IMG/VR virus record: IMGVR_UViG_2711768010_000018
DNA: 46,353 bases
DNA from: a virus
Lineage: Duplodnaviria > Heunggongvirae > Uroviricota > Caudoviricetes
Strand: one strand, 5' to 3'
Program-made: the position numbers and the translations under genes
Shown here: positions 1,742 to 20,170 of the stretch, piece by piece
How positions within the stretch are numbered: position 1 is the stretch's first letter
Layout of the letters: each line of letters opens with the position of its first letter
Notes under the pieces: generated by a model
What the model was told of the DNA's origin: nothing
Database searches by the model: none
The model's input: only the letters and a program-made list of their open reading frames with translations

Positions 1742-1928
1742 GAACACCTCCATTATTATTTCCAGTGGTTCGTTTATTTCATCGTTCGAGTGCTTCTTTT
1801 TCACTTCCACCATAACCGGTTCGGGATTCGCATCCGTTACACTTCGCTCGGTAATATCCTGAAATGGCTTTCACCGTTACTGATGGACAACCACAAAATG
1901 GACATGGTTTAACATTGTCATATCTCAT
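1734..1928 (-). pseudogene. ralR: Restriction-alleviation protein Lar/RalR homologue interrupted by an in-frame TGA at 1779-1781 (49 codons, stop, then 14 more sense codons to TAA at 1734-1736)
   Basis: Hand translation of the minus strand from ATG 1928: MRYDNVKPCPFCGCPSVTVKAISGYYRAKCNGCESRTGYGGSEKEALER-stop-NKRTTGNNNGGVHV-stop. Cys-rich zinc-ribbon-like N-terminus and position between ydaC and recT match RalR. Confidence 0.55.
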
Positions 1929-1983
1929 AATTTTTCTCATAAAAATATTTCAAGTTGGCGGTGCATTACACCGCCAGGCTGAA

Positions 1984-2793
1984 TTATTCCTCTGAATTAT
2001 CGATTACACTGTATTCCCCGGTTAATACAGAGGAATCTGCAGGATCGATTGTCAGTGGTTCCTTTTCATCCATTGATACTGCACGCTGGATCTCAATTGA
2101 TACGGGCAGATATTTGAACAGGCGACGAATAGCCGTTTTCTTTGCCATTTCTTCCCAGTGAGTTACCCACGGCCCGTTATTACCAGCTTTACTCTGGCTG
2201 CGCACCAGCTCAATCTGTTTGCGCGTCATAACTTCAAACTGAGTACCTCCGTCTTTCAGTCTTGCGACAGCATAGACGTGGGTAACAGGGGCATCTTCGT
2301 TTTCTCCTGGGCGGTGTATTAACTTTTCATCAAGGCCAAATTCGAAATTAAACTCGTCACCTTCACGGACAACACGGGCTGACAGGCTGGCGATTTGACC
2401 TGAACGGCGAGCCAGATCAATCATGCCGCGATAGCCAATGATTAGCTGAACGTTTTTTTTACCGCTCTTTTCGTTTTTATTACCAAAAGGCAGTAAATAT
2501 GCATGACCGAGGGCGCTACCGGGCTCAAGTCCGAGCTGTGAACACTGTACGATTGCACTGACAAAACTCATAGTGTCACAGTTTCCTAACGCCGGAACTT
2601 TACGAATTTCTGTGGTGGCGATACGGATCATACGTTCAGCCGTCATATGGCGTGGAAGAGCTGCTGCCAGTTGCTCTTTCATTGATGGCTGGTTAATAAA
2701 ACTAATCACGTCGTTATTTTTAATTGCTGCTGGTGCACGGTTTCCCTGAGTTTTTTGCAGATCGGCTTTTGCGATTGGTGGTTGCTTAGTCAT
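1984..2793 (-). CDS. recT: RecT single-strand annealing recombinase, 269 aa
   Basis: ORF track 1984..2850; internal Met [13 protein letters not shown]... gives 269 aa matching recalled Rac RecT; overlaps the recE 3' end as in the recET operon. Confidence 0.92.
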
Positions 2794-5386
2794 TTGCATA
2801 TTCCTTAGCCCAGCGGGGCAGTGATAACGTCTTAATAGCTGGCCATTCATCGGTATTGAGGCAGTCAGCCAGGGTTCGCAGATTGCGGTGATATTCCAGC
2901 TGACCTGCCAGTTTTGCTTCTTCGCCCATCATGAAAATTTCAACCGGATAACGTCCGCATTCAATAGTTGTGCTGGCAACCAGAAAAACGAAAGTTGGCT
3001 GCACTCCAAACTGTGCTTCATAACCGTCACTGTAGAATGCATCCTGAACGTGATAGCGGTAGTCGTAATAAGCGGTTTTGAATCGTTGAATATCCGCCGT
3101 AGTTTTCACGTCCATGATCCAGTGAAATTCAGGGATAATTTTGTCCGGACGGCACCGACACAAAATTGCTGTTTCAGGATCTTCCCAGTAAATTGATGAT
3201 TCAGCGTGTCCGGCGCTTTCAACAAGCCATTGCCCCAGCGGCAAAGCCATAACGCTCTGATACATGAGTTCAATTTTCCGGCCTTCTTCGGCAGTGATAA
3301 CCGTTTTTCCTGTGCTTGCGCATTCCCTCAGAAACGCTTTCTCTTCTTCTTTTCCGGAGTTTGTCCGGCGGTTAAATTCAGGTGCTACGATAAAGCGGTT
3401 ACTGAATTCTTCCGGCTCAAGTACCCGGCAGTGGAAAGCGGTTCCTAAATCGAGCGTTTTTGTCTTTGTGGTGTCCACGGGGGCATTTTTACGCCACAAA
3501 TACAGTGCCGGAGTATCAGCAATGTCATCGAGCTGAGACTTACTGACACCGGGACCCGCGTGGTAATTCTCATTCGAAATTCCGTAATAAATACCTGGCT
3601 CTATGTCTTCTACGATTACGGGATCTGCGACTTCGCCAGTTTCATCACTGCAATCGCGATGCGGATCGCTGCCAGCATTCTCATTGTGCGGATGTTCAGC
3701 GCCTTCCATTTCCTCCGGATCATTTTCCTTAGCTTCAACCTGACTCTCTTCATCGAATGTTTCCTGGTATGTTGCGTCGCCCATCACCGCACCACAGTCA
3801 GGGCAGTTATCCCCGCCAGTCTGGCCGCAGGCATTGCAGGCTATTTCCGGTTCCTGTTGCACTACTGGCTCAGGTTGATTCATATCCGGGCTGGTTTTTT
3901 CCGTTTCTGGCTGGTTCTGGTACACACAATCGCGAGTCTGGATCCCCTTTACCCATTTCGGATCGTTCGGGTCGCTAATTCCGTCAACAAATTCACCACG
4001 TGATGCAGCAAGCAATTTATCGGCATCGACAGGATTTTTTGATGGAATGTTTTTCCGGGCTTCATGGAGTTCTGCCCGCAGTTCCTGATATTTCGCATCA
4101 ACAGAATTTACCTGTGACTGAGCATCCAGCGGCTGCGTGTCCTGATGATGTTCAGTTGCGTCCGGTTCCATTGTTTCAGCCTCTCCCTGTTCAACTGCCG
4201 TTGTTCCAGATGGTTGCGGTTTTTCTTCATCATCCTGTTTTCCTTCTTCTGTTACTCGCTGCGGCATCGGGGCAGAGGAGCGACCGCAGGCAATATCCAC
4301 GATTTCCGGATCAGGGTTGGCATGATCGGTTTCAGTCAGTACTTTGTTCAGATATTCAGTGACGTGCGCGGGGATGACCTCGATCCCAATTGGTGCTTCT
4401 TTTACGGACGCAACCACGATGGCGCGGGAATAATCCAGCCCGCCAGGCATGGTGATGAATTTGTCGCGGAAAACAGAAAAGGGCGGTTTATTTTCAGCGA
4501 TAATTTCCTCAATGCGTTTAGCGTGTGCCGGATGAAGGTTATAGATGTCCAGATCCATTGAACGGGCCAGTACGCCAGTGGCTACGTCCCGCGCCAGTGA
4601 CGTCAGATCGTGTACGAAACCTTCGCCGCGATCGGTGAGGTTTCCGCCGCCAGCATTAGCACCGGAAGCCGTGCGAGTGATGTGTGAAACACGATTACCC
4701 TTCATCCACTCTTTTGTCAGCAGTCCTCGATCGGTGTAGTCAGCGTTCAGGTATGCTTCGAAAAAAGCAGTTATCAGTCCCAGGTTTGAATTACCAGGAT
4801 TAGGGAAAACTTTGTCAGTGTCACGAACCAGTTTGTGGAGTTCGCGAATTTCCAGCGGGTCGAGCAGGCTGGTTTTGTGGGAAACAGCCAGGGCAGTAAC
4901 AGCCGGTAGTTCTTCAGCCCGAGCAATGTGTAATGCCTGGAGTCCGTCGCGTGAAACGTGCGTTACCGGTTTTTCGCTGCCGTGTTGAGCAAGCCAACGA
5001 ATGGGCAGTTCCTGGCCAGAAATTGGGAGTAGCATATTCTCCTCAATCTCAGGCATGTCTTCGCCGTTGACGTTGGTATTGCCTTGATAGTGAGCGTTGT
5101 CTGGTGCTGCTCCCGGTTTTAGTTCCCATGTCATGGAGTCTTTGCTGAGTTGATAGCGTTCACTCCAGGTAAAATCGATCTCACCTTCAGCGGGCAGGTC
5201 ATTAACGACAGGAAAATTCGTGGCAACAGCTTTAAAATAGCTGCTCAGTTTTTTACCTGACTTAACGATCAGGTAGTCCAGAGTGGCACAGGTCGATTCA
5301 AAATCGTTGCTTGCCCACAGGACGACGTCAGGTTCACCGGATGATTTTTTCGCTTTCCGTAACAGGAAGAGTGGTTTTGTGCTCAT
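2786..5386 (-). CDS. recE: RecE exonuclease VIII, 866 aa
   Basis: 866 aa ORF with ATG at 5384-5386, immediately upstream of recT on the same strand; length and C-terminal nuclease region consistent with RecE. Confidence 0.92.
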
Positions 5387-5487
5387 TGTTTTTTAACCTC
5401 AACTCAGATTAAAATTCGTTTTGTTCAGTGAATGATCTTGCCGGATACACACTGTTCATAGCCTGCGCCATACGCAGGCTATTTCTT

Positions 5488-5763
5488 TCAGATTTCACCT
5501 TTTAATTTCATTGCAATTAGAGTTGCCAGAAATTCGGCTTTTTTTTCTGCGGGCAGATTCTTTCCGATATGCACCAGGCACATTTTTTTGACACCTTCAT
5601 CAAGTGTTTTTACGTTGCCTGATGGACCATCGATATCAACCACAGTGAATGGGGTTTCTTTATTTTCTGTTTTAATTACGTAGCCAATGCGCTTTCCTTC
5701 CAGATTCACCTCGTGAACAATGTCATCGGTAGTTACAACAGTGGCTTCATAATTGGTAATCAT
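5488..5763 (-). CDS. racC: RacC-like small protein (91 aa from MITNYEATVV...)
   Basis: ORF track 5488..5811; internal ATG at 5763 is preceded on the minus strand by AAGGAG (RBS). Confidence 0.8.
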   Translation of the reverse strand: MITNYEATVVTTDDIVHEVNLEGKRIGYVIKTENKETPFTVVDIDGPSGNVKTLDEGVKKMCLVHIGKNLPAEKKAEFLATLIAMKLKGEI

Positions 5764-5837
5764 GTTTTTCTCCTTAATTAAGGTTGAGCGAATACCTGCC
5801 ATTTCTGGCATAAATTCAGTTTCGAATAGTCAATTAA

Positions 5838-6008
5838 TTAAAGTTCATGTGCCATCTGGTCTTTTTCGGCACAAGCTTCACTGCAATATTTTCTCGGTTC
5901 GTCTTTTGATAAAATCCCGTGCATGAAGTGAAGCATTCTTTCAATAGCTTTGCTTTCTTCAACGTCTTTTTTGCAAAGGTGGTAAGCACATTTTATTTTC
6001 TTAGTCAT
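5838..6008 (-). CDS. ydaE: Small Cys-containing protein YdaE-like, 56 aa ([56 protein letters not shown])
   Basis: Hand-translated minus-strand ORF below the 60 aa track cut-off; its ATG overlaps the kilR stop by 1 nt (TGATG). Confidence 0.65.
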   Translation of the reverse strand: MTKKIKCAYHLCKKDVEESKAIERMLHFMHGILSKDEPRKYCSEACAEKDQMAHEL

Positions 6009-6229
6009 CACCATGACTCCGCCTTTACAGGTAAACCATCACGACCGAGGAAGACTTTAATCATGCGGTCAGTAATGCATGTTTTTGTGGTCAGGTTACG
6101 AATATATAGTTTTCGCTTTTTAATATTGTTTGCCGAGGCAATATATGTCCGGCCTTCATGAAGAACATAATCGCCAGGAGTCACACACTGACGTGGTATT
6201 TCATCAGTTCCGAAGTGATGTGCAATCAT
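6008..6229 (-). CDS. kilR: KilR, FtsZ-directed cell-division inhibitor (73 aa from [14 protein letters not shown]...)
   Basis: ORF track 6008..6241; sequence matches recalled KilR; position upstream of ydaE/racC/recE in the leftward operon. Confidence 0.85.
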
Positions 6230-6670
6230 AATTATCTCCATTTTTACAAATGAACTTTGTTGATGCGGTGCCTGGTGCCTCCAGGTGACTGCAACCAGTT
6301 AACAATTACAGTCGGCTTTCCCACCCAAACCAATAAGGACTAACATGACTTTTAACTGTGCCACGTGCGCTTAGCCGCATTCACCGCATCACAAAATTCA
6401 CTTTAAAAAGGGCGGACATCAGCCGAACTTCAAGAAAAAAACTGATGCCGCCAGGACTACACACAGCAATGTCGTTATTTACAACCGGAGGCGCACTCCC
6501 ACCATTTAAATTTAACAGACAAGACCGACTCTTTATGGATATCGGAAATGCGCCTTCGTGTTGTGCCCGGTTTTATTTCACCACCTCCGGGCTTCGGTGG
6601 TCTCGGCTATACCCCTACAGCGAGAGCTTGTGTTAACATTTCAATACCCTTACAGTTGAGAGTTATTGAT

Positions 6671-11758: not shown

Positions 11759-11915
11759 ACGTTACTAGATCAAAGAGCATTAGTTCATATGTAAATTGAC
11801 ATTTTTCTGGCACAGGGGAGAGCTAGCGTGGTTGTCCGCTTTGTGCCAATAGCGGACATTGCTGGCTCATGGTATGTTAGTTTAAGGAGGCAGGTTATGC
11901 CCTGTATTTCGCTGT

Positions 11916-11924
11916 GGTATAATA
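11916..11924 (+). promoter_or_regulatory. Extended -10 promoter element TGgTATAAT upstream of the cargo operon
   Basis: Exact TGGTATAAT at 11916-11924, about 30 bp upstream of the AAGGGAG RBS (11941-11947) and GTG at 11957; compositional shift to AT-rich DNA begins here. Confidence 0.45.
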
Positions 11925-11956
11925 GTTGCGCAATTGATACAAGGGAGCGTTACATC

Positions 11957-12919
11957 GTGAAAATTGTTTTCGAGGTTAATGGAAAGAAAGTTCCACTAAA
12001 ATCTTTAAAATACATAAGCAAAAAAGATCAACTCGAAGTAATGAAAAACTGGTTCTTTGAAAACTTTGAAGATCCGGCAAATGCTTGTCCGTATGAAAGT
12101 AGAGAAGGTGGCTATGCTTACATATATGGCGGGCCGTATGATGCGAGCGAAGAACTACAATCCATCTTCGGTCAATATGTTAAATCTGAGTATATTGAGG
12201 AATTAGTAGATGAATTACAAACACAATGTTTTGACTGGTCTGGAAACTCAAATAATATAGATGATTGGTACGATGATGATATCTACGACGCTGTAACGTC
12301 TTCCGGTAATCCGTATTTAAAATTCATTGATAATATCGATAAAATAAAAAAACTTGCAAAAGATAAAACTGAACAACAGCAAAAAAACCACTTGCTTAGT
12401 TTGCTCTACACGAATGTTATTACAGCTTTGGAAACGCTTTATGTTGAGCTATTCATTAATTCTATAGAGAAAGATGATGTCTACATAGCCAATTGTATAG
12501 AAAAAGGTAAGACTGAATTTAAAGTAAGCAAAGATATTGCTGCGTTGCCTTTCAAGGGTGAACCCATCGAGAAAATTAGGGGAGAGCTAATCAGGTCAAT
12601 CAAGGAACACTTGATCAGTGCAAGCTGGCATAGCACTAAAAAGGTAATCGACCGCTATGAAGCTACATTCGATATAAAAGTACAAAAAGACTGTCCGATA
12701 GAAGCTATTGAATTGGCAACCCTCAATCGAAATCACTTAGTGCATCGTGGTGGAAAGGATAAAGAAGGGAACCTCGTAGTGATTACAGACCAGGATCTTG
12801 AAACGCTGATTGAAAATGCATCGAACCTGGCAATTATGCTCTACAACAGTTTAAATGTAGCAACGAATAAAACCACCATTTTGCAACCAGATGACAAACC
12901 GTTCATTCATGAATTTTAA
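11957..12919 (+). CDS. Cargo protein A: unknown N-terminal region with a C-terminal HEPN-like Rx4H motif (NRNHLVHRGG); about 320 aa from GTG 11957 (alternative starts ATG 11897 or GTG 11828)
   Basis: AT-rich ORF (track 11828..12919); RBS AAGGGAG 9 nt before the in-frame GTG at 11957; the R-x4-H motif in a helical C-terminal half is typical of HEPN RNase domains. No family recognised with certainty. Confidence 0.6.
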   Translation: MKIVFEVNGKKVPLKSLKYISKKDQLEVMKNWFFENFEDPANACPYESREGGYAYIYGGPYDASEELQSIFGQYVKSEYIEELVDELQTQCFDWSGNSNNIDDWYDDDIYDAVTSSGNPYLKFIDNIDKIKKLAKDKTEQQQKNHLLSLLYTNVITALETLYVELFINSIEKDDVYIANCIEKGKTEFKVSKDIAALPFKGEPIEKIRGELIRSIKEHLISASWHSTKKVIDRYEATFDIKVQKDCPIEAIELATLNRNHLVHRGGKDKEGNLVVITDQDLETLIENASNLAIMLYNSLNVATNKTTILQPDDKPFIHEF

Positions 12920-12934
12920 TAGCGCAGGTCATAC

Positions 12935-13936
12935 ATGGATATTCGCACACGAAAGACAAAATTTTTAGAGTCGTTAGATTCAACTGAAGTGATACGCAAA
13001 GCAGTAAGTCTCGCTATAGATTGCATTATTGATAATCATAATAGTAATGAAGATACCCCCTTAGTTATTACCAGCTATGATGATCTCTGTAGAATCCAGG
13101 TGCTAAATTATGTACAGGAGTTTTGCGAAGCTGCATTCCCTGATATGGATGAATATTACTTTAGTCCTAACATACTTCGCATCAACGGCAAGACTAGTGA
13201 AGAAGCTTGTATTAACTTAATTAAACTCTTAAGAAGTACAAAAGGCATGCTATTCTGGTCCGATGCCCCATCGTGGTTCGCTAGCCTCCCCGACGGATTA
13301 TTCCATGTTGTTAACATTGATCAAAAAATCGTTACTCGCGGCCTTAATAAGAAAAACTCTAAGCCGACAATAATCAATAAAGATTACAGTGTAGATACAC
13401 TACTATCAGAGCTATTTTTGAATGGCGCACACATGGAGCAACCCAACGTACACAACGTTTCTGAGGGAAACATGAAGTTCTATGATGAATGCCATGCTGG
13501 ATTAATCAGACCAATACCCGCTCCAATAGGCGCGTCATACGATGAAGAGATCACAATTAATTCTCCAGATTGGCAAAAGCTCGCGTGTGTAGCTTTACGC
13601 CGCTATCAGTCGAAGGAATGTCATGACGGAATGCAATGGGATACAACCGATCATGGTTGGACTGATGTAATCGCGTATCCATTCGTCGAAGAAATACAAT
13701 CAATGGATAATAGTGGTTATCGACAATGTTTAGTTGGGCTGGTCACAATAAACAATTCAAATGCAAATTCTCCGTACCTATCTACCGTTTGGATACATCC
13801 ATTTTATCGCAGGAGAGGGTTATTAAGTAAGTTATGGCCAAAATTACAAGAGTTATATGGAAGTAACTTCGAAATTGAGCGACCTAATGAAAATATGAAA
13901 GCATTTCTGAAAAGTGCGAAACACGCAGATTACTAA
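12935..13936 (+). CDS. Cargo protein B: 333 aa with a C-terminal GNAT-like acetyltransferase signature (VWIHPFYRRRGLLSKLW)
   Basis: ATG at 12935 is 15 nt after the stop of protein A (same strand, likely operon); AT-rich; the C-terminal 120 aa resemble GNAT motif A (R-x-x-G-x-G/A-like) plus downstream motif; N-terminal 200 aa unrecognised. Confidence 0.65.
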   Translation: MDIRTRKTKFLESLDSTEVIRKAVSLAIDCIIDNHNSNEDTPLVITSYDDLCRIQVLNYVQEFCEAAFPDMDEYYFSPNILRINGKTSEEACINLIKLLRSTKGMLFWSDAPSWFASLPDGLFHVVNIDQKIVTRGLNKKNSKPTIINKDYSVDTLLSELFLNGAHMEQPNVHNVSEGNMKFYDECHAGLIRPIPAPIGASYDEEITINSPDWQKLACVALRRYQSKECHDGMQWDTTDHGWTDVIAYPFVEEIQSMDNSGYRQCLVGLVTINNSNANSPYLSTVWIHPFYRRRGLLSKLWPKLQELYGSNFEIERPNENMKAFLKSAKHADY

Positions 13937-16308: not shown

Positions 16309-16598
16309 TGGTGAATTTACGTAAAGCGGCTAAAGGCCAGATGTGCCAGATCAGAATCCCTGGCTACTGCAATCACAATCCCGAAACCTCTGTGCTGGCG
16401 CATTACAGGCTGGCGGGGACGTGCGGAACAGCGACAAAACCACATGATATGCAGGCGGCGATAGCCTGTAGCTCATGCCACGATCTAATCGACGGGCGGG
16501 TAAAAACCAGCGATTACACCAAAGAAGAATTGCGCCTGATGCATGCTGAAGGGGTTTTTCGCACACAAGAAATCTGGAGAAAGAAAGGTCATTTATGA
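16308..16598 (+). CDS. YbcO-like (DUF1364) putative zinc-binding nuclease, 96 aa
   Basis: Sequence MVNLRKAAKGQMCQIRIPGYCNHNPETSVLAHYRL...CSSCHD closely resembles DLP12 YbcO as I recall it; conserved Cys/His cluster. Confidence 0.7.
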   Translation: MVNLRKAAKGQMCQIRIPGYCNHNPETSVLAHYRLAGTCGTATKPHDMQAAIACSSCHDLIDGRVKTSDYTKEELRLMHAEGVFRTQEIWRKKGHL

Positions 16599-17137
16599 TT
16601 TACCCAACGAATACAGGAAAAAGCGGAGAACACCTTCGCCTCACCACGCTGGAAAGTGTCTGGATTCAGGGAAAACTACGTATGTGGGGGCGCTGGTCGT
16701 ATATTGGCGGTGGCAGGTCAGGGAATATGTTCAATCAGTTGTTGGCATCCAAAAAACTGACGAAAACAGCCATTAATGAAGCCCTGCGCAGAATGAAAAA
16801 AGCGGGAATAGAGAAAGCTGAGCTGGAAGCGTTTTTGCGAGAGATGATCAACGGCAAGCAAAAGAGCTGGCTGGCGCATTGTACTGATGCAGAGGCGTTA
16901 TGTATTGATCGAGTCATAAGTGAGGTGCTGGCAGAGCATCCAGGATTGATTTGCATTCTCCGGCAACGCTATGAAGGGCGGGGGATGACTAAGCGCAAAA
17001 TGGCTGAATTGCTAAATGATGCACACCCAGAGTGGTGTTTTAGCACATGCGAAAAACGGATTGCTAATTGGTTAGCTGTTGCTGAGTATGCCCTATATAT
17101 TCCCATGCGTGAATCATTTGCTGAGAAAATGGCTTGA
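16595..17137 (+). CDS. Putative late-gene antiterminator Q (Cys-pair zinc-finger-like), 180 aa
   Basis: Last gene before the lysis region; overlapping start with the upstream gene; Cys pairs (HCTDAEALC and EWCFSTCEKR). Assignment is by position; the sequence is not recognised with certainty. Confidence 0.45.
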   Translation: MIYPTNTGKSGEHLRLTTLESVWIQGKLRMWGRWSYIGGGRSGNMFNQLLASKKLTKTAINEALRRMKKAGIEKAELEAFLREMINGKQKSWLAHCTDAEALCIDRVISEVLAEHPGLICILRQRYEGRGMTKRKMAELLNDAHPEWCFSTCEKRIANWLAVAEYALYIPMRESFAEKMA

Positions 17138-17246: not shown

Positions 17247-17564
17247 GTCAGGAAAGCAGGGGAGAATGCTGCTAGTTGGGCAACTGGTCTTTCTGCTCCA
17301 AATTATAACAGAGACCAGTTATAGTTTCGGTGCTGTGTTTTTTTTACAATATTGTGATAACACATTGCTGGCGGGAGTTTTGATATTTCTTGGCAGGGGC
17401 TGATGATGCGTTATCCTGATGTCGTCAACTCATATAAAATGAGATGAGAGATCATTGCAGGGTGGTTTGTAATTCGCTGTTTAGCGGGACAATATGTTGT
17501 CTGATACAAGACACCCGACGCCTCAGATTACTATAATAAAGACGAAGCATCCTTTGTATTGACC

Positions 17565-17590
17565 AACCGCCTGTTTAGGCGGTTCTTTTT
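17565..17590 (+). terminator. Terminator-like hairpin in the Q-to-lysis intergenic region
   Basis: Stem AACCGCC (17565-17571) / GGCGGTT (17578-17584) followed by CTTTTT. Confidence 0.4.
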
Positions 17591-18122
17591 GGGCTGGTTT
17601 ATTGTATGCCAAATGATTATTAAAAAGGTTGTGTTAATAACAAGATCCGAAATAATATGCCTGCATATTTTTATCTTGCTTATATTCTGCATATTGTGCA
17701 TAGCAGGCTCATCCCTGCAATCAAAACTGTATGATGAGTATTTTTTGTTTTCCTTTTTTCCAGTCATCTGATGATGACCTGCTTCTTTTTAATCCGGATC
17801 GACATCAGTTTTTTAAGATAATTCCTGCGAGTTATATGCATAAATGCCACAAACTCCGCATTTTATGTGGTTGGGAGTTGCCGGGCGCGCAGTGAGTTTG
17901 CTAAGAAAACTCCTGCATGGTGAATCCCCCTGTGCGGTGGGGTGATACCATTAACCTTTTCTGTCGCCGACAGGTATCACGAACATTTTGTTCACCGGGA
18001 GGCACCCGGCACCATGCACTTCAATAGATTCTCTCCACATTATGGATATTCTTTCAGAATATCCCACGCAGACTTTGTGTAAATGTTAACAAATGTGCGT
18101 TTTATTTGATCTGATTCGCTGT

Positions 18123-18152
18123 TTGAGCGTCCAAAACAACGGTATATATAAT
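18123..18152 (+). promoter_or_regulatory. Sigma70-like promoter upstream of lipoprotein gene 1
   Basis: -35 TTGAGC (18123-18128), 18 bp spacer, -10 TATAAT (18147-18152), about 30 bp upstream of the RBS and ATG at 18182. Confidence 0.45.
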
Positions 18153-18181
18153 CCTTTACTATATGACATATGTGAGGAAAA

Positions 18182-18610
18182 ATGGGTTTTCGTAGCGCAT
18201 CAATTCTTACGTTGATTATTAGTGGGATTATTATCGGGTGCACTGATGCTGTATCGACAAATTATCATGACCGTACATCATATTACTCCGATAAAGCAAT
18301 AGAGACACAGTATGTGAGTTCATCTGAACGTACTTCTGATGTTAGTGAGGATATCCGTCTGTATGCCCATCAAATCAAGAGCGCCATCGAAAAACAGTTC
18401 GGGGATGCGAGTAAGTATTCAGGAAAAGAGTGTACACTGAGAATGCATATGGCCCCGAATGGCCTTCTACTGGAGGTTAAAAGAGAAAGTGGAGACCTCG
18501 ATTTATGTCGTGAAGCGATGAATGCGATAAAGAATGCTGATATACCTGCCCCCCCTTCGCCGGAAGTATATAAAGTATTTCAAAATGGGGTGCTGGATTT
18601 TAAACCCTGA
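18182..18610 (+). CDS. Lipoprotein with a TolA C-terminal (domain III)-like domain, 142 aa
   Basis: Signal peptide with lipobox IIGC; C-terminal 80 aa (IKSAIEKQFGDASKYSGKECTLRMHMAPNGLLLEVKRESGDLDLCREAMNAIKNADIPAPPSPEVYKVFQNGVLDFKP) closely resembles my recollection of E. coli TolA domain III (IKSAIESKFYDASSYAGKTCTLRIKLAPDGMLLDIKPEGGDPALCQAA...VYEVFKNAPLDFKP). Confidence 0.7.
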   Translation: MGFRSASILTLIISGIIIGCTDAVSTNYHDRTSYYSDKAIETQYVSSSERTSDVSEDIRLYAHQIKSAIEKQFGDASKYSGKECTLRMHMAPNGLLLEVKRESGDLDLCREAMNAIKNADIPAPPSPEVYKVFQNGVLDFKP

Positions 18611-18760
18611 TATTTATTGTTTTGTAATAAACGGTTTCGGCTTAGGTTTGTTCTGACACAGCTACGGCACTGAGCTAAATTTAGCGGATAGTCAGCTCTG
18701 AGCCAGTGGCGGACGTAACAACTACTATTGCTGAGATTTTAATGGATTGAGGAGCAAGAA

Positions 18761-19156
18761 GTGGGATTAAAGAAAATCGTTATGTTGACTTTTTGGGTCG
18801 GTTTTGTTGCGGGATGCACACCTTTACACCCTTCAGATTGCCACAAAACTACTGCTACAGGTAGTTGCAGTTCAGGACGCTGGGATGATCAGGATGAATG
18901 GGGGGCGCAAGCGCGGGGAATCAGAGCTGCAATTAATGCCAAACTTGATGAGCCGCATAACTGGAAAGGGAAAAAATGCAGGTTGCATATGGAATTCTCT
19001 CAGGATGGCACGGCGTTAAAAATATCTACCAGTAACGGTGATAAAGCCTATTGCGAAGCGATAAAGTCCGCAGCTCATAAAGCCAAATTTCCGGCCTTCA
19101 ACAATCCGGAAGTCTACAGAGATTTTCAGAAATCTGGCTTTGACATGCGAGGTTAG
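18761..19156 (+). CDS. Second, more divergent TolA-domain-III-like lipoprotein, 131 aa (GTG start)
   Basis: Lipobox VAGC; shares the K.CRLHMEF...G.AL...C.AIKSAA...PEVYRDFQ pattern with the upstream paralogue. Confidence 0.6.
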   Translation: MGLKKIVMLTFWVGFVAGCTPLHPSDCHKTTATGSCSSGRWDDQDEWGAQARGIRAAINAKLDEPHNWKGKKCRLHMEFSQDGTALKISTSNGDKAYCEAIKSAAHKAKFPAFNNPEVYRDFQKSGFDMRG

Positions 19157-19282
19157 CTCTTCAATTACTATATCTCATTCATAGCAAACTGACAGATTTG
19201 ATGATGTTCTATATACGAAACCTGTGATGTCAAGTCTGAGCTAATACAAATAAACATAATATCAGAGAAATACATTTTATTA

Positions 19283-19306
19283 GCTCGCTACGGCGAGCTT
19301 TTTATA
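19283..19306 (+). terminator. Rho-independent terminator about 100 bp upstream of the holin gene
   Basis: Stem AGCTCGC (19283-19289), loop TACG, stem GCGAGCT (19294-19300), then TTTTT. Confidence 0.55.
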
Positions 19307-19407: not shown

Positions 19408-19623
19408 ATGAAATCCATGGACAAAATTTCAACAGGCATTGCCTACGGCACCTCCGCAGGCAGTGCTGGCTACTGGTTTTTACAGTTGCTCGATAGAGTA
19501 ACTCCGTCACAGTGGGCTGCAATCGGTGTGCTGGGTAGTCTGGTATTTGGCCTGCTGACGTACCTGACAAACCTTTATTTCAAGATTAAAGAAGATAAGC
19601 GCAAGGCTGCGAGAGGTGAATAA
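19408..19623 (+). CDS. Phage-21-type pinholin S with dual-start motif (MKSM...), 71 aa
   Basis: ORF track 19351..19623 begins at GTG; the internal ATG at 19408 follows a GGAGGTGAGG RBS and gives a sequence nearly identical to S21 as I recall it ([26 protein letters not shown]...KAARGE); stop overlaps the endolysin start. Confidence 0.85.
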
Positions 19624-20170
19624 TGCCTCCATCATTACGAAAAGTCGTTGCTGCTGCTATTGGTGGCGGAGCAATTGCTATAGCATCAGTGTTAATCACT
19701 GGCCCAAGTGGTAACGATGGTCTGGAAGGTGTCAGCTACATACCATACAAAGATATTGTTGGTGTATGGACTGTATGTCACGGGCATACAGGAAAAGACA
19801 TCATGCTCGGTAAAACGTATACCGAAGCAGNNNNNNNNNNNNNNNNNNNNNNNNNNNNNNNNNNNNNNNNNNNNNNNNNNNATGCAAAACACTCTTGAAT
19901 AAAGACCTTGCCACTGTCGCCAGACAAATTAACCCGTACATCAAAGTCGATATACCGGAAACAACGCGCGGCGCTCTTTACTCATTCGTTTACAACGTGG
20001 GTGCTGGCAATTTCAGAACATCGACGCTTCTTCGCAAAATAAACCAGGGCGATATCAAAGGCGCATGTGACCAGCTACGTCGCTGGACATATGCTGGCGG
20101 TAAGCAATGGAAAGGTCTCATGACTCGTCGTGAGATTGAGCGTGAAATCTGTTTGTGGGGTCAGCAATGA
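19623..20170 (+). CDS. SAR endolysin (phage-21 R-type lysozyme), interrupted by a 51-N run at 19831-19881
   Basis: N-terminal SAR segment ([18 protein letters not shown]), then lysozyme-like sequence; the two track ORFs (19623..19898 and 19895..20170) are the two halves of one gene split by the N-run. Confidence 0.8.

Follow-up and report, generated by a model that had tools for sequence, protein, structure and literature searches.

Why does a prophage carry, side by side, two small genes whose products resemble the C-terminal domain of the host protein TolA? The DNA that raises this question is IMG/VR record IMGVR_UViG_2711768010_000018, a stretch of 46,353 nucleotides (nt) that is referred to here, at its full length, as the window. 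The two open reading frames (ORFs) of interest are ORF1 (18182-18610, ATG start, 142 amino acids) and ORF2 (18761-19156, GTG start, 131 amino acids), and the original prediction, made from the sequence alone, had presented them as tandem prophage lipoproteins that mimic TolA domain III (TolA-III) and could act as periplasmic decoys. The analysis described below bears out the lipobox and the domain, separates the origins of the two genes, and retains the decoy function as the reading that we favor. The parts of the two genes are as follows:

18182-18241, plus strand: ORF1 lipoprotein signal peptide MGFRSASILTLIISGIIIGC, residues 1-20, lipobox IIGC, with Cys20 predicted to be lipidated and Thr at +2; ratio of nonsynonymous to synonymous substitution rates (dN/dS) 0.35.
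18242-18340, plus strand: ORF1 tether, residues 21-53, predicted to be disordered (predicted local distance difference test score, pLDDT, below 50 for residues 21-49); dN/dS 0.59.
18341-18610, plus strand: ORF1 TolA-III fold, residues 54-142 and the stop codon, from profile, PDB match and model superposition; dN/dS 0.24.
18749-18754, plus strand: GAGGAG ribosome-binding site, separated from the ORF2 GTG by 6 nt and within a block shared with plasmid and other-genus copies.
18761-18817, plus strand: ORF2 lipoprotein signal peptide MGLKKIVMLTFWVGFVAGC, residues 1-19, lipobox VAGC, with Cys19 predicted to be lipidated and Thr at +2.
18815-18901, plus strand: ORF2 N-terminal motif CxPLHPSxCHKTTATGSCSSGRWDDQDEW (in the window, D at the second x), with two extra Cys and a W-acidic-W segment.
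18890-19156, plus strand: ORF2 TolA-III fold, residues 44-131 and the stop codon, from profile, PDB match and model superposition; dN/dS 0.06-0.08.

How are the two proteins built, and how much of TolA do they contain? Both start with a positively charged n-region (R4 in ORF1, K4-K5 in ORF2) and a hydrophobic h-region that run into a lipobox of the pattern [LVI][ASTVI][GAS]C, with no Asp at position +2, and these are the features by which lipoproteins were recognized in this work. The lipobox Cys that had been predicted in IIGC and VAGC is invariant when the two families, which are less than 30% identical, are aligned, and is invariant in plasmid relatives as well. Under the Lol sorting rule, the Thr found at +2 in each protein is an outer-membrane signal. 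The inner-membrane anchor of TolA (domain I) is absent from both proteins, the N-terminus being the lipoprotein signal peptide of 19-20 residues, and the helical domain II is absent as well, the lipid Cys being joined to the fold by a tether of ~24-33 residues that is predicted to be disordered. The full-length TolA profiles NF007065 and TIGR02794 match both ORFs only over model positions 265-387. ORF1 scores 107.8 bits against NF007065, below the cut-off of 213, and 75.6 bits against TIGR02794, above the cut-off of 59.45 on its C-terminal part alone, and ORF2 falls below both cut-offs (53.7 and 47.2 bits). On these sequence comparisons, we assign ORF1 and ORF2 to the TolA C-terminal domain family and not to the TolA orthologues, and they are most likely outer-membrane lipoproteins that consist of a signal peptide, a tether and the full TolA-III fold.

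The likeness to TolA-III that had been predicted was confirmed for both proteins by alignment. ORF1 matches Pfam PF06519 with an E-value of 2.4e-23 (82.6 bits, cut-off 25) and PDB chains of TolA-III with 5e-28, and is 60.5% identical, without gaps, to residues 335-421 of K-12 TolA. Its AlphaFold model has a domain pLDDT of ~90, and the top Foldseek match is 2x9a_B, with a root-mean-square deviation (rmsd) of 0.6 Å over 88 residues. As predicted, ORF1 keeps the Cys pair (C84/C109, equivalent to TolA C363/C388 and invariant columns of the alignment) and ends in VFQNGVLDFKP, compared with VFKNAPLDFKP in TolA, so that the last five residues, LDFKP, are the same. The strand to which colicin A binds reads LLEVKR in ORF1 and LLDIKP in TolA, a conservative substitution, and of two lysines of the colicin A site K368 is replaced by His and K396 is kept. 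For ORF2, the corresponding values are 1.3e-14 (54.6 bits, same cut-off) for PF06519 and 5e-9 for the PDB chains, and the AlphaFold model has a domain pLDDT of ~90, values below 50 for residues 1-39, and 3qdp as top Foldseek match (rmsd 1.1 Å over 83 residues). The ORF2 Cys pair, C73/C98, aligns with TolA C363-C388, again in invariant columns, and its β3 strand is FDMRG, which contains no proline. Both AlphaFold models, which are predicted structures, superpose on TolA-III structures and complexes (2x9a, 1tol and 3qdr).

If ORF1 is an intact gene, why has it drawn so little notice? In every genome listed, RefSeq annotates it as a pseudogene, 'tolA, incomplete, missing N-terminus', of which only 18350-18610 is marked (e.g., locus L001 20451-20711), and the misleading name is probably explained by the match to TIGR02794 on the C-terminal part. 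Variants of ORF1 at 91%, 74% and 66% identity all have the 142-codon frame and the lipobox intact, and dN/dS over the whole length, with the part omitted by RefSeq included, is 0.26-0.39 (0.26 and 0.36 against two variants). Because ORF1 is under purifying selection, the pseudogene label is wrong and the annotation needs correcting; because of that label, the gene cannot be seen in protein-based surveys of those genomes. The third codon positions of the ORF1 domain are only 40% identical to those of K-12 tolA, which rules out a recent capture from, or fragment of, the host gene. The homology as such is already visible in public annotation, namely in RefSeq product names, in the RAST label "TolA protein" and in PHROG 5772, a family of unknown function that is the only strong PHROG match of either ORF; the PADLOC models gave no match for ORF1 or ORF2. 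Entries reading "TolA protein, hypothetical protein" in a table of uropathogenic Escherichia coli (UPEC) genomes probably refer to this cassette. A "TolA" remark on a ciprofloxacin-induced prophage gene (PMC11125564) was set aside, as that gene is annotated as a tail fiber and lies at another locus.

The start of ORF2 also differs from RefSeq, in which it lies at 18782, 21 nt later, a position that would leave the signal peptide without its basic n-region. The block of homology shared with plasmid and other-genus copies starts ~40 nt upstream at GAGGAG and ends at the stop codon, and pO157 has ATG where the window has GTG, which together support the GTG at 18761 as the start. Compared with its copies on pO157 and IncI plasmids and in Citrobacter and Serratia-like genomes, ORF2 has a dN/dS of 0.05-0.08 and is thus more constrained than ORF1. 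The pattern of its N-terminal motif, which fixes the spacing of three Cys and two Trp and includes LH, recurs in 117 of 120 homologues, with few positions that vary. The motif has no match in PDB sequences or Pfam, and AlphaFold leaves the segment unstructured; it may resemble the TolB boxes of colicins.

Are the two genes, then, a gene and its duplicate? Prevalence was taken from complete RefSeq genomes and from PLSDB, and clinical isolates are over-represented in both. ORF1 is present in 888 of 5426 complete E. coli genomes, with 950 of its 952 places chromosomal, and among species-representative genomes it occurs only in Shigella flexneri. Every ORF1 locus inspected is a prophage, with the gene between an antiterminator gene (DUF1133-type or PF03589-type) and a holin gene. 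Some ORF1 variants are followed by nanS-p-like, DUF1378 and DUF826 genes, which presumably also follow stx in Stx phages, and ORF2 is absent from the ORF1-variant loci checked. ORF2 itself is found in 1269 of the 5426 genomes, where 825 of its places are chromosomal and 525 are on plasmids, and at 78-89% identity in Citrobacter, Enterobacter, Serratia, Klebsiella, Raoultella, Leclercia and others. A comparison of the chromosomal ORF2-type copies with the nrdDG/GmrSD and ars neighborhoods found no shared neighbors. On plasmids, ORF2-type genes occur in 607 records, including pO157 and IncI-type conjugative plasmids, whose homologues are 88% identical. The pO157 gene lies in the leading region after psiB, psiA and hok, on a plasmid typed as non-mobilizable, and the IncI-type gene lies 68 nt after the relaxase gene (nikB) and before trbC (e.g., locus L022 8964-9395). 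In R64, the prototype of IncI1 (NC_005014.1, 1-2919), the gene is missing and nikB abuts trbC, so that the ORF2-type gene, an insertion in related IncI-type plasmids, is accessory cargo even within this plasmid group. The tandem ORF1-ORF2 cassette is present in 771 E. coli genomes, mostly at 99% identity or more, and is the dominant form in this species. ORF1 and ORF2 are only 28% identical and, to judge from their sequences, are two old lineages that were acquired independently; the suggested divergent paralogue, if it is taken to mean the product of a local duplication, is not supported, given this identity, the separate deep lineages and the different distributions.

Tandem pairing in one prophage type is one arrangement within a much wider family. 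An exhaustive HMMER search returned 333 clusters (at 50% identity) related to ORF1, and among the best 147 of those hits, which were examined, 89 are no longer than 200 amino acids; a lipobox is present in at least 46 of these 89, and several others have ordinary signal peptides. In a quick neighbor-joining tree of the domain, built on ~90 residues, the short lipoproteins form many deep branches that lie mostly apart from full-length TolA, with ORF1 outside the E. coli TolA clade and ORF2 on a long branch of its own. Those members that bear a name belong to Serratia, Kosakonia and Hafnia, and each of them is labeled "TolA". TolA-III-like ORFs were found on 1300 plasmid records. Klebsiella ColRNAI plasmids of 10-12 kb carry genes for a colicin-like bacteriocin, immunity and lysis together with a pair of TolA-III lipoprotein and TonB-domain genes. 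In NZ_CP028788.2 (10 kb), a 123-residue TolA-III lipoprotein with lipobox LTAC (2203-2574, minus strand) is overlapped by the gene for a Sec-secreted TonB C-terminal domain of 121 residues (1841-2206, minus strand; E-value 1e-15 to E. coli TonB), and the same adjacent pair of features lies under the match on at least eight plasmids among the matches listed. This pairing is best explained by both domains being import hubs that are used by bacteriocins and phages. On Klebsiella IncF plasmids (e.g., NZ_CP006663.1), the gene for a secreted thioredoxin-fold protein (5229-5777) precedes that for a TolA-III lipoprotein of 144 residues (5824-6258), and the former may be a dedicated disulfide helper for the TolA-III Cys pair. 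At two Kosakonia loci (L025 and L026, 6001-6423), a TolA-III lipoprotein gene lies beside a DinI-like gene and near an isocitrate dehydrogenase gene (Iso_dh, presumably icd, a known prophage integration site), and the flanks of these loci cluster with those of several Serratia loci, one Klebsiella locus and one Citrobacter locus.

When and how would the cassette be expressed? ORF1 and ORF2 occupy an interval of 2.3 kb in the prophage, with the following neighbors and signals:

16595-17137, plus strand: Q-like antiterminator gene (Pfam DUF1133, 2.5e-107; Phage_antitermQ, 26.1 bits, cut-off 26), the upstream edge of the cargo slot.
17508-17537, plus strand: candidate late promoter, putatively pR'-like, AAGACA-18 nt-TATAAT, with 10 of 12 matches in a consensus scan.
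17565-17584, plus strand: terminator-like hairpin with a T-run, putatively tR'-like, just 3' of the candidate late promoter; -14.3 kcal/mol, z-score -1.9.
17885-18071, plus strand: match to the small RNA (sRNA) family STnc100 of Rfam, with 86.6 bits (gathering score 47), just 5' of the ORF1 promoter-like site.
18123-18152, plus strand: sigma-70-like promoter, TTGAGC-18 nt-TATAAT, with 10 of 12 consensus matches, ~30 nt 5' of the ORF1 start codon.
19282-19305, plus strand: intrinsic terminator, AGCTCGC-TACG-GCGAGCT (hairpin 19282-19299) followed by TTTTAT; -13 kcal/mol, z-score -4.2.
19408-19623, plus strand: holin gene of the P21 S family, essD-like (Pfam Phage_holin_2_1, 2.1e-35; RefSeq annotation), with which the cargo slot ends.

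The window is a complete Rac-like lambdoid E. coli prophage that matches the Rac region of strain ECCHD184, in agreement with the prophage setting first proposed, and the same Q-like gene is annotated in the ECCHD184 prophage. Its gene order begins with integrase, xis, ralR with the RalA sRNA, recET, kilR and sieB, and continues with replication genes, a nin-like region, the lysis cassette, trkG and the structural genes. The promoter that had been proposed for the cassette is present as a motif at 18123-18152 and is one of the two best promoter matches in the region; it is a consensus match of a kind that is common locally. It is exact in 73 of 80 IMG/VR copies, and in the ORF1 variant of 91% identity the -10 hexamer reads TGTAAT, so that the promoter is kept only among close relatives. 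Expression in the lysogen, which had been proposed from this match, was not supported by the analysis. An AraC-family regulator gene lies just 5' of the 66%-identity ORF1 variants (loci L014-L017, 3826-4539), which hints at a different regulation of the same cargo. At the other end, beyond the range first noted, the terminator hairpin was matched by none of 200 shuffles in folding and is exact in 72 of 80 IMG/VR copies. Folding of the 150-nt spacer between ORF1 and ORF2 found no terminator and no significant structure, and with a strong terminator after ORF2 the two genes probably form one transcription unit. The view of the cassette as self-contained thus holds at its terminator and, at its promoter, has the consensus match. 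As the cassette lies 3' of the candidate late promoter, it should be transcribed in lytic growth too.

The scan of IMG/VR gave near-identical copies only and is informative for the integrity of the cassette. Promoter, ORF1, ORF2, terminator and holin remain together in these copies, and the 3' end of the Q gene of the window lies upstream in only 37 of 80. Phage mEp460_ev081 shares the cassette, with genes annotated 'antitermination protein Q' upstream, and its homology to the window begins only at 17991, at a GC stem-loop (CACCGGGAGGCACCCGGCACC, 17993-18013) inside the STnc100 match. The GC content of the cassette is 41%, compared with 47% for the window. With more than one upstream sequence linked to it, a deviating composition and a variable presence, the cassette is moron-like cargo. 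The stem-loop is repeated with two mismatches at 6267-6287 (minus strand) in the same prophage, and similar peptide signatures (HREAPG...) recur in ORFs 3' of ORF1 in locus L019; the stem-loop may mark a mosaic boundary, or it may be an RNA element that is repeated in the late regions of lambdoid phages.

What could exported copies of TolA-III do for such a prophage? Without domain I and domain II, they would be neither energized by TolQ-TolR nor able to transmit force, which leaves binding only. We hypothesize, with a probability that we put at about one half, that ORF1 and ORF2 are periplasmic decoys for Tol-dependent colicins and filamentous phages. Lipid-anchored on the inner face of the outer membrane, where the translocation domains of colicins and the phage protein g3p emerge, they would capture by β-strand addition the translocation domains of group A colicins and the N1 domain of g3p from pilus-specific filamentous phages; import of a ligand caught on such a dead-end copy would stall, and the cell would be tolerant. 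The genes would be expressed from their own promoter in the lysogen and, after induction, also by Q-antiterminated late transcription. Both ligand-binding edges survive in ORF1, where the LDFKP of β3 is identical and the colicin A strand changed conservatively, and neither ORF has a proline at the critical backbone positions of β3. TolAIII that is exported on its own acts dominantly, and Levengood-Freyermuth et al. reportedly saw, in 1993, colicin tolerance with it. In TolA, β3 (A415-K420) binds g3p-N1, colicin N and the N-terminus of TolB, and a proline substitution at D418 or K420 abolishes all three interactions (PMC4339652); colicin A adds to a strand on the other side from β3, L375-P380 (PMC3365938). 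The dissociation constants of TolA-III are 1 µM for colicin N and 40 µM for TolB (PMC4339652). The weak affinity for TolB and the tight one for colicin N would favor capture of the parasites over that of the host ligand, and a moderate amount of decoy would intercept them in preference to TolB.

The company in which the relatives are found strengthens the decoy reading, since a bacteriocin plasmid with a TonB domain, or a conjugative plasmid whose pili attract TolA-dependent phages, is a carrier that fits it. Phage If1 is specific for I-type conjugative pili. The complex of its g3p with TolA-III has been solved (PDB 2x9a). More tentatively, and with rather less confidence than for the two proteins themselves, we propose that mobile elements of Enterobacterales carry exported copies of TolA-III (lipid-anchored) and of the TonB C-terminal domain (secreted) as a widespread and hitherto unrecognized class of broad-spectrum "import immunity", which would soak up the Tol- and Ton-box regions of bacteriocins and the g3p of pilus-specific filamentous phages and of which ORF1-ORF2 would be the commonest form in E. 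coli.

Several observations weigh against the decoy reading. Lying 3' of the candidate late promoter, the genes should be strongly expressed shortly before lysis, a stage at which tolerance would be of no value. The promoter match does not stand out statistically, as the AT-rich 2.35 kb around the cassette contain 11 such sites, with 5.9 ± 2.5 expected from shuffles, and it is not conserved in the ORF1 variants of 66% identity, whose upstream region is unrelated. A TolA-III copy should also bind the N-terminus of TolB and could damage the envelope. In the full text of open-access papers and bioRxiv, we found no study of the function of phage- or plasmid-borne TolA-domain lipoproteins, although subscription journals may hold one. 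ORF2 is only 34% identical to TolA-III and has charge reversals in the colicin A site (K368E, D377K and K396H), and ORF2-type genes are single chromosomal genes in many Enterobacterales, in ~15 contexts as judged by flank clustering. Its N-terminal motif has a dN/dS of 0.016-0.08, and conservation this extreme points to a specific conserved partner and not to simple mimicry. These properties of ORF2 lead to an alternative that we consider unlikely, in which one or both proteins, and ORF2 in particular, have a distinct envelope function with their own conserved partner: TolA-III would serve as a generic adaptor for strand addition, the Cys-loop and W-acidic-W segment would bind another periplasmic or outer-membrane protein, and ORF1 and ORF2 would differ in role. 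The purifying selection on ORF2 across genera, which extends to the 26 residues after the lipid Cys, its long separate branch, its chromosomal place in many species and its altered colicin A surface would all be expected. Yet no partner was identified for a motif without a match in PDB or Pfam, the β3 edge is retained, and the ORF2-type gene is accessory and mobile, in many contexts and on 607 plasmids, and absent from R64.

Could the target instead be the host Tol-Pal system itself? In this alternative, the main rival of the decoy reading, the lipoproteins bind the N-terminus of host TolB, uncouple TolB-Pal from TolA and loosen the outer membrane, the benefits of which could include easier lysis and particle release, hypervesiculation or the release of periplasmic contents. 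The cassette does belong by position to the late operon, where it follows the candidate pR'/tR' and precedes the holin gene, and both ORFs retain β3, without whose strand addition TolA mutants lose TolB binding and show the full tol phenotype (PMC4339652); moreover, E. coli that exports a signal-sequence-fused TolAIII (the Wan & Baneyx construct) becomes leaky for periplasmic protein (PMC6195910). However, a promoter-like site of its own and a strong terminator set the cassette apart from the holin gene, in a prophage already equipped with holin, lysozyme and an Rz-type lysis gene; homologues are found on plasmids and chromosomes where lysis genes are not among the neighbors; it is hard to see how lysis would explain the secreted TonB domain that accompanies the lipoprotein on bacteriocin plasmids; and the affinity of TolA for TolB is weak (40 µM). 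We regard this modulation of Tol-Pal as unlikely. A role in conjugation, either in exclusion or in mating-pair formation, that reached the prophage only by chance would account for the ORF2-type gene between the relaxase gene and trbC on IncI-type plasmids and near psiB, psiA and hok on pO157, but R64 conjugates without the gene, the non-mobilizable pO157 keeps it, and the ORF1 family is chromosomal at 950 of 952 places and prophage-borne at all loci examined, which makes this role highly improbable. Least credible of all is that the ORFs are non-functional tolA fragments picked up by the phage, as the RefSeq annotation and the score of ORF1 above the TIGR02794 cut-off by its C-terminal part would have it: a frame of 142 amino acids with signal peptide and lipobox is kept down to 66% identity, third codon positions are 40% identical to K-12 tolA, dozens of related lipoprotein lineages exist, and the selection analysis (dN/dS 0.26-0.39 over the whole length) rules this reading out.

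Elsewhere in the window, two further cargo ORFs adjoin one another between the replication module and the nin-like region, one of 363 amino acids (11828-12919, plus strand) with a weak HEPN_RES_NTD1 match and one of 333 amino acids (12935-13936, plus strand) with a weak GNAT match; together they may form a pair that acts in defence or as toxin and antitoxin. At the equivalent position, the Rac prophage of ECCHD184 has other cargo, which includes a BCCT transporter. A run of 51 N (masked or unknown bases) at 19831-19881 lies inside the phage lysozyme gene and splits it into two apparent ORFs in the ORF list.

What would follow if the decoy reading were true? Between a sixth and a quarter of the E. 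coli sequenced would then harbor a hidden tolerance, open to transfer, to Tol-dependent colicins and to filamentous phages, and the same tolerance would reside on many pO157, IncI and Klebsiella bacteriocin plasmids, with a bearing on colicin and phage ecology in the gut, on colicin- and phage-based therapeutics and on hosts for phage display. It would also be a new principle of defence, in that known defences mask a receptor and here a host hub would be copied. If the modulation of Tol-Pal were true, the proteins would be naturally occurring inhibitors of Tol-Pal, which is under pursuit as a target for antibacterials. The TolA-III lipoproteins are genuine and occur very often, and the hypothesis is a clear one that can be tested at little cost.

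How do these proteins compare with known systems? E. coli TolA-III (residues ~325-421; PDB 1S62, 3QDP/3QDR, 1TOL and 2X9A) has the same fold of three helices, three strands and one disulfide. In contrast to TolA, which reaches from the inner membrane, ORF1 and ORF2 lack the TolQR-binding anchor and domain II, would have no coupling to the proton motive force and would be attached by lipid to the outer membrane; the divergence is old, with the 40% identity at third codon positions and a place outside the E. coli TolA clade. The engineered periplasmic TolAIII (Levengood-Freyermuth 1993; Wan & Baneyx 1998) is likewise an isolated, exported domain and interferes dominantly with Tol, but it is an artificial, soluble and over-expressed host sequence, whereas ORF1 and ORF2 are natural, diverged, selected and mobile and are predicted to be lipid-anchored. 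Llp of T5 and Cor of phi80, N15 and mEp phages are also small phage outer-membrane lipoproteins, lysogenic-conversion cargo that blocks competitors; they plug the receptor FhuA, whereas ORF1 and ORF2, which have no sequence relationship to them, would copy a periplasmic hub. The immunity given by g3p of filamentous phages uses the same TolA-III interface with the opposite logic, in that there a ligand saturates the hub and here a copy of the hub would saturate the ligand. Periplasmic g3p that occupies TolA makes the cell resistant to superinfection and tolerant to colicins. The stx genes of Stx phages occupy the same slot from Q to holin, 3' of the late promoter and terminator, and dual expression is expected there as well, although the product is unrelated. 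Finally, the plasmid relatives have the same layout of lipobox, tether and TolA-III, are accessory cargo and have no annotation beyond 'TolA' or 'TolA C-terminal domain-containing protein'; they differ in their carriers and partners, and two different TolA-III lipoproteins in tandem are found only in this type of prophage.

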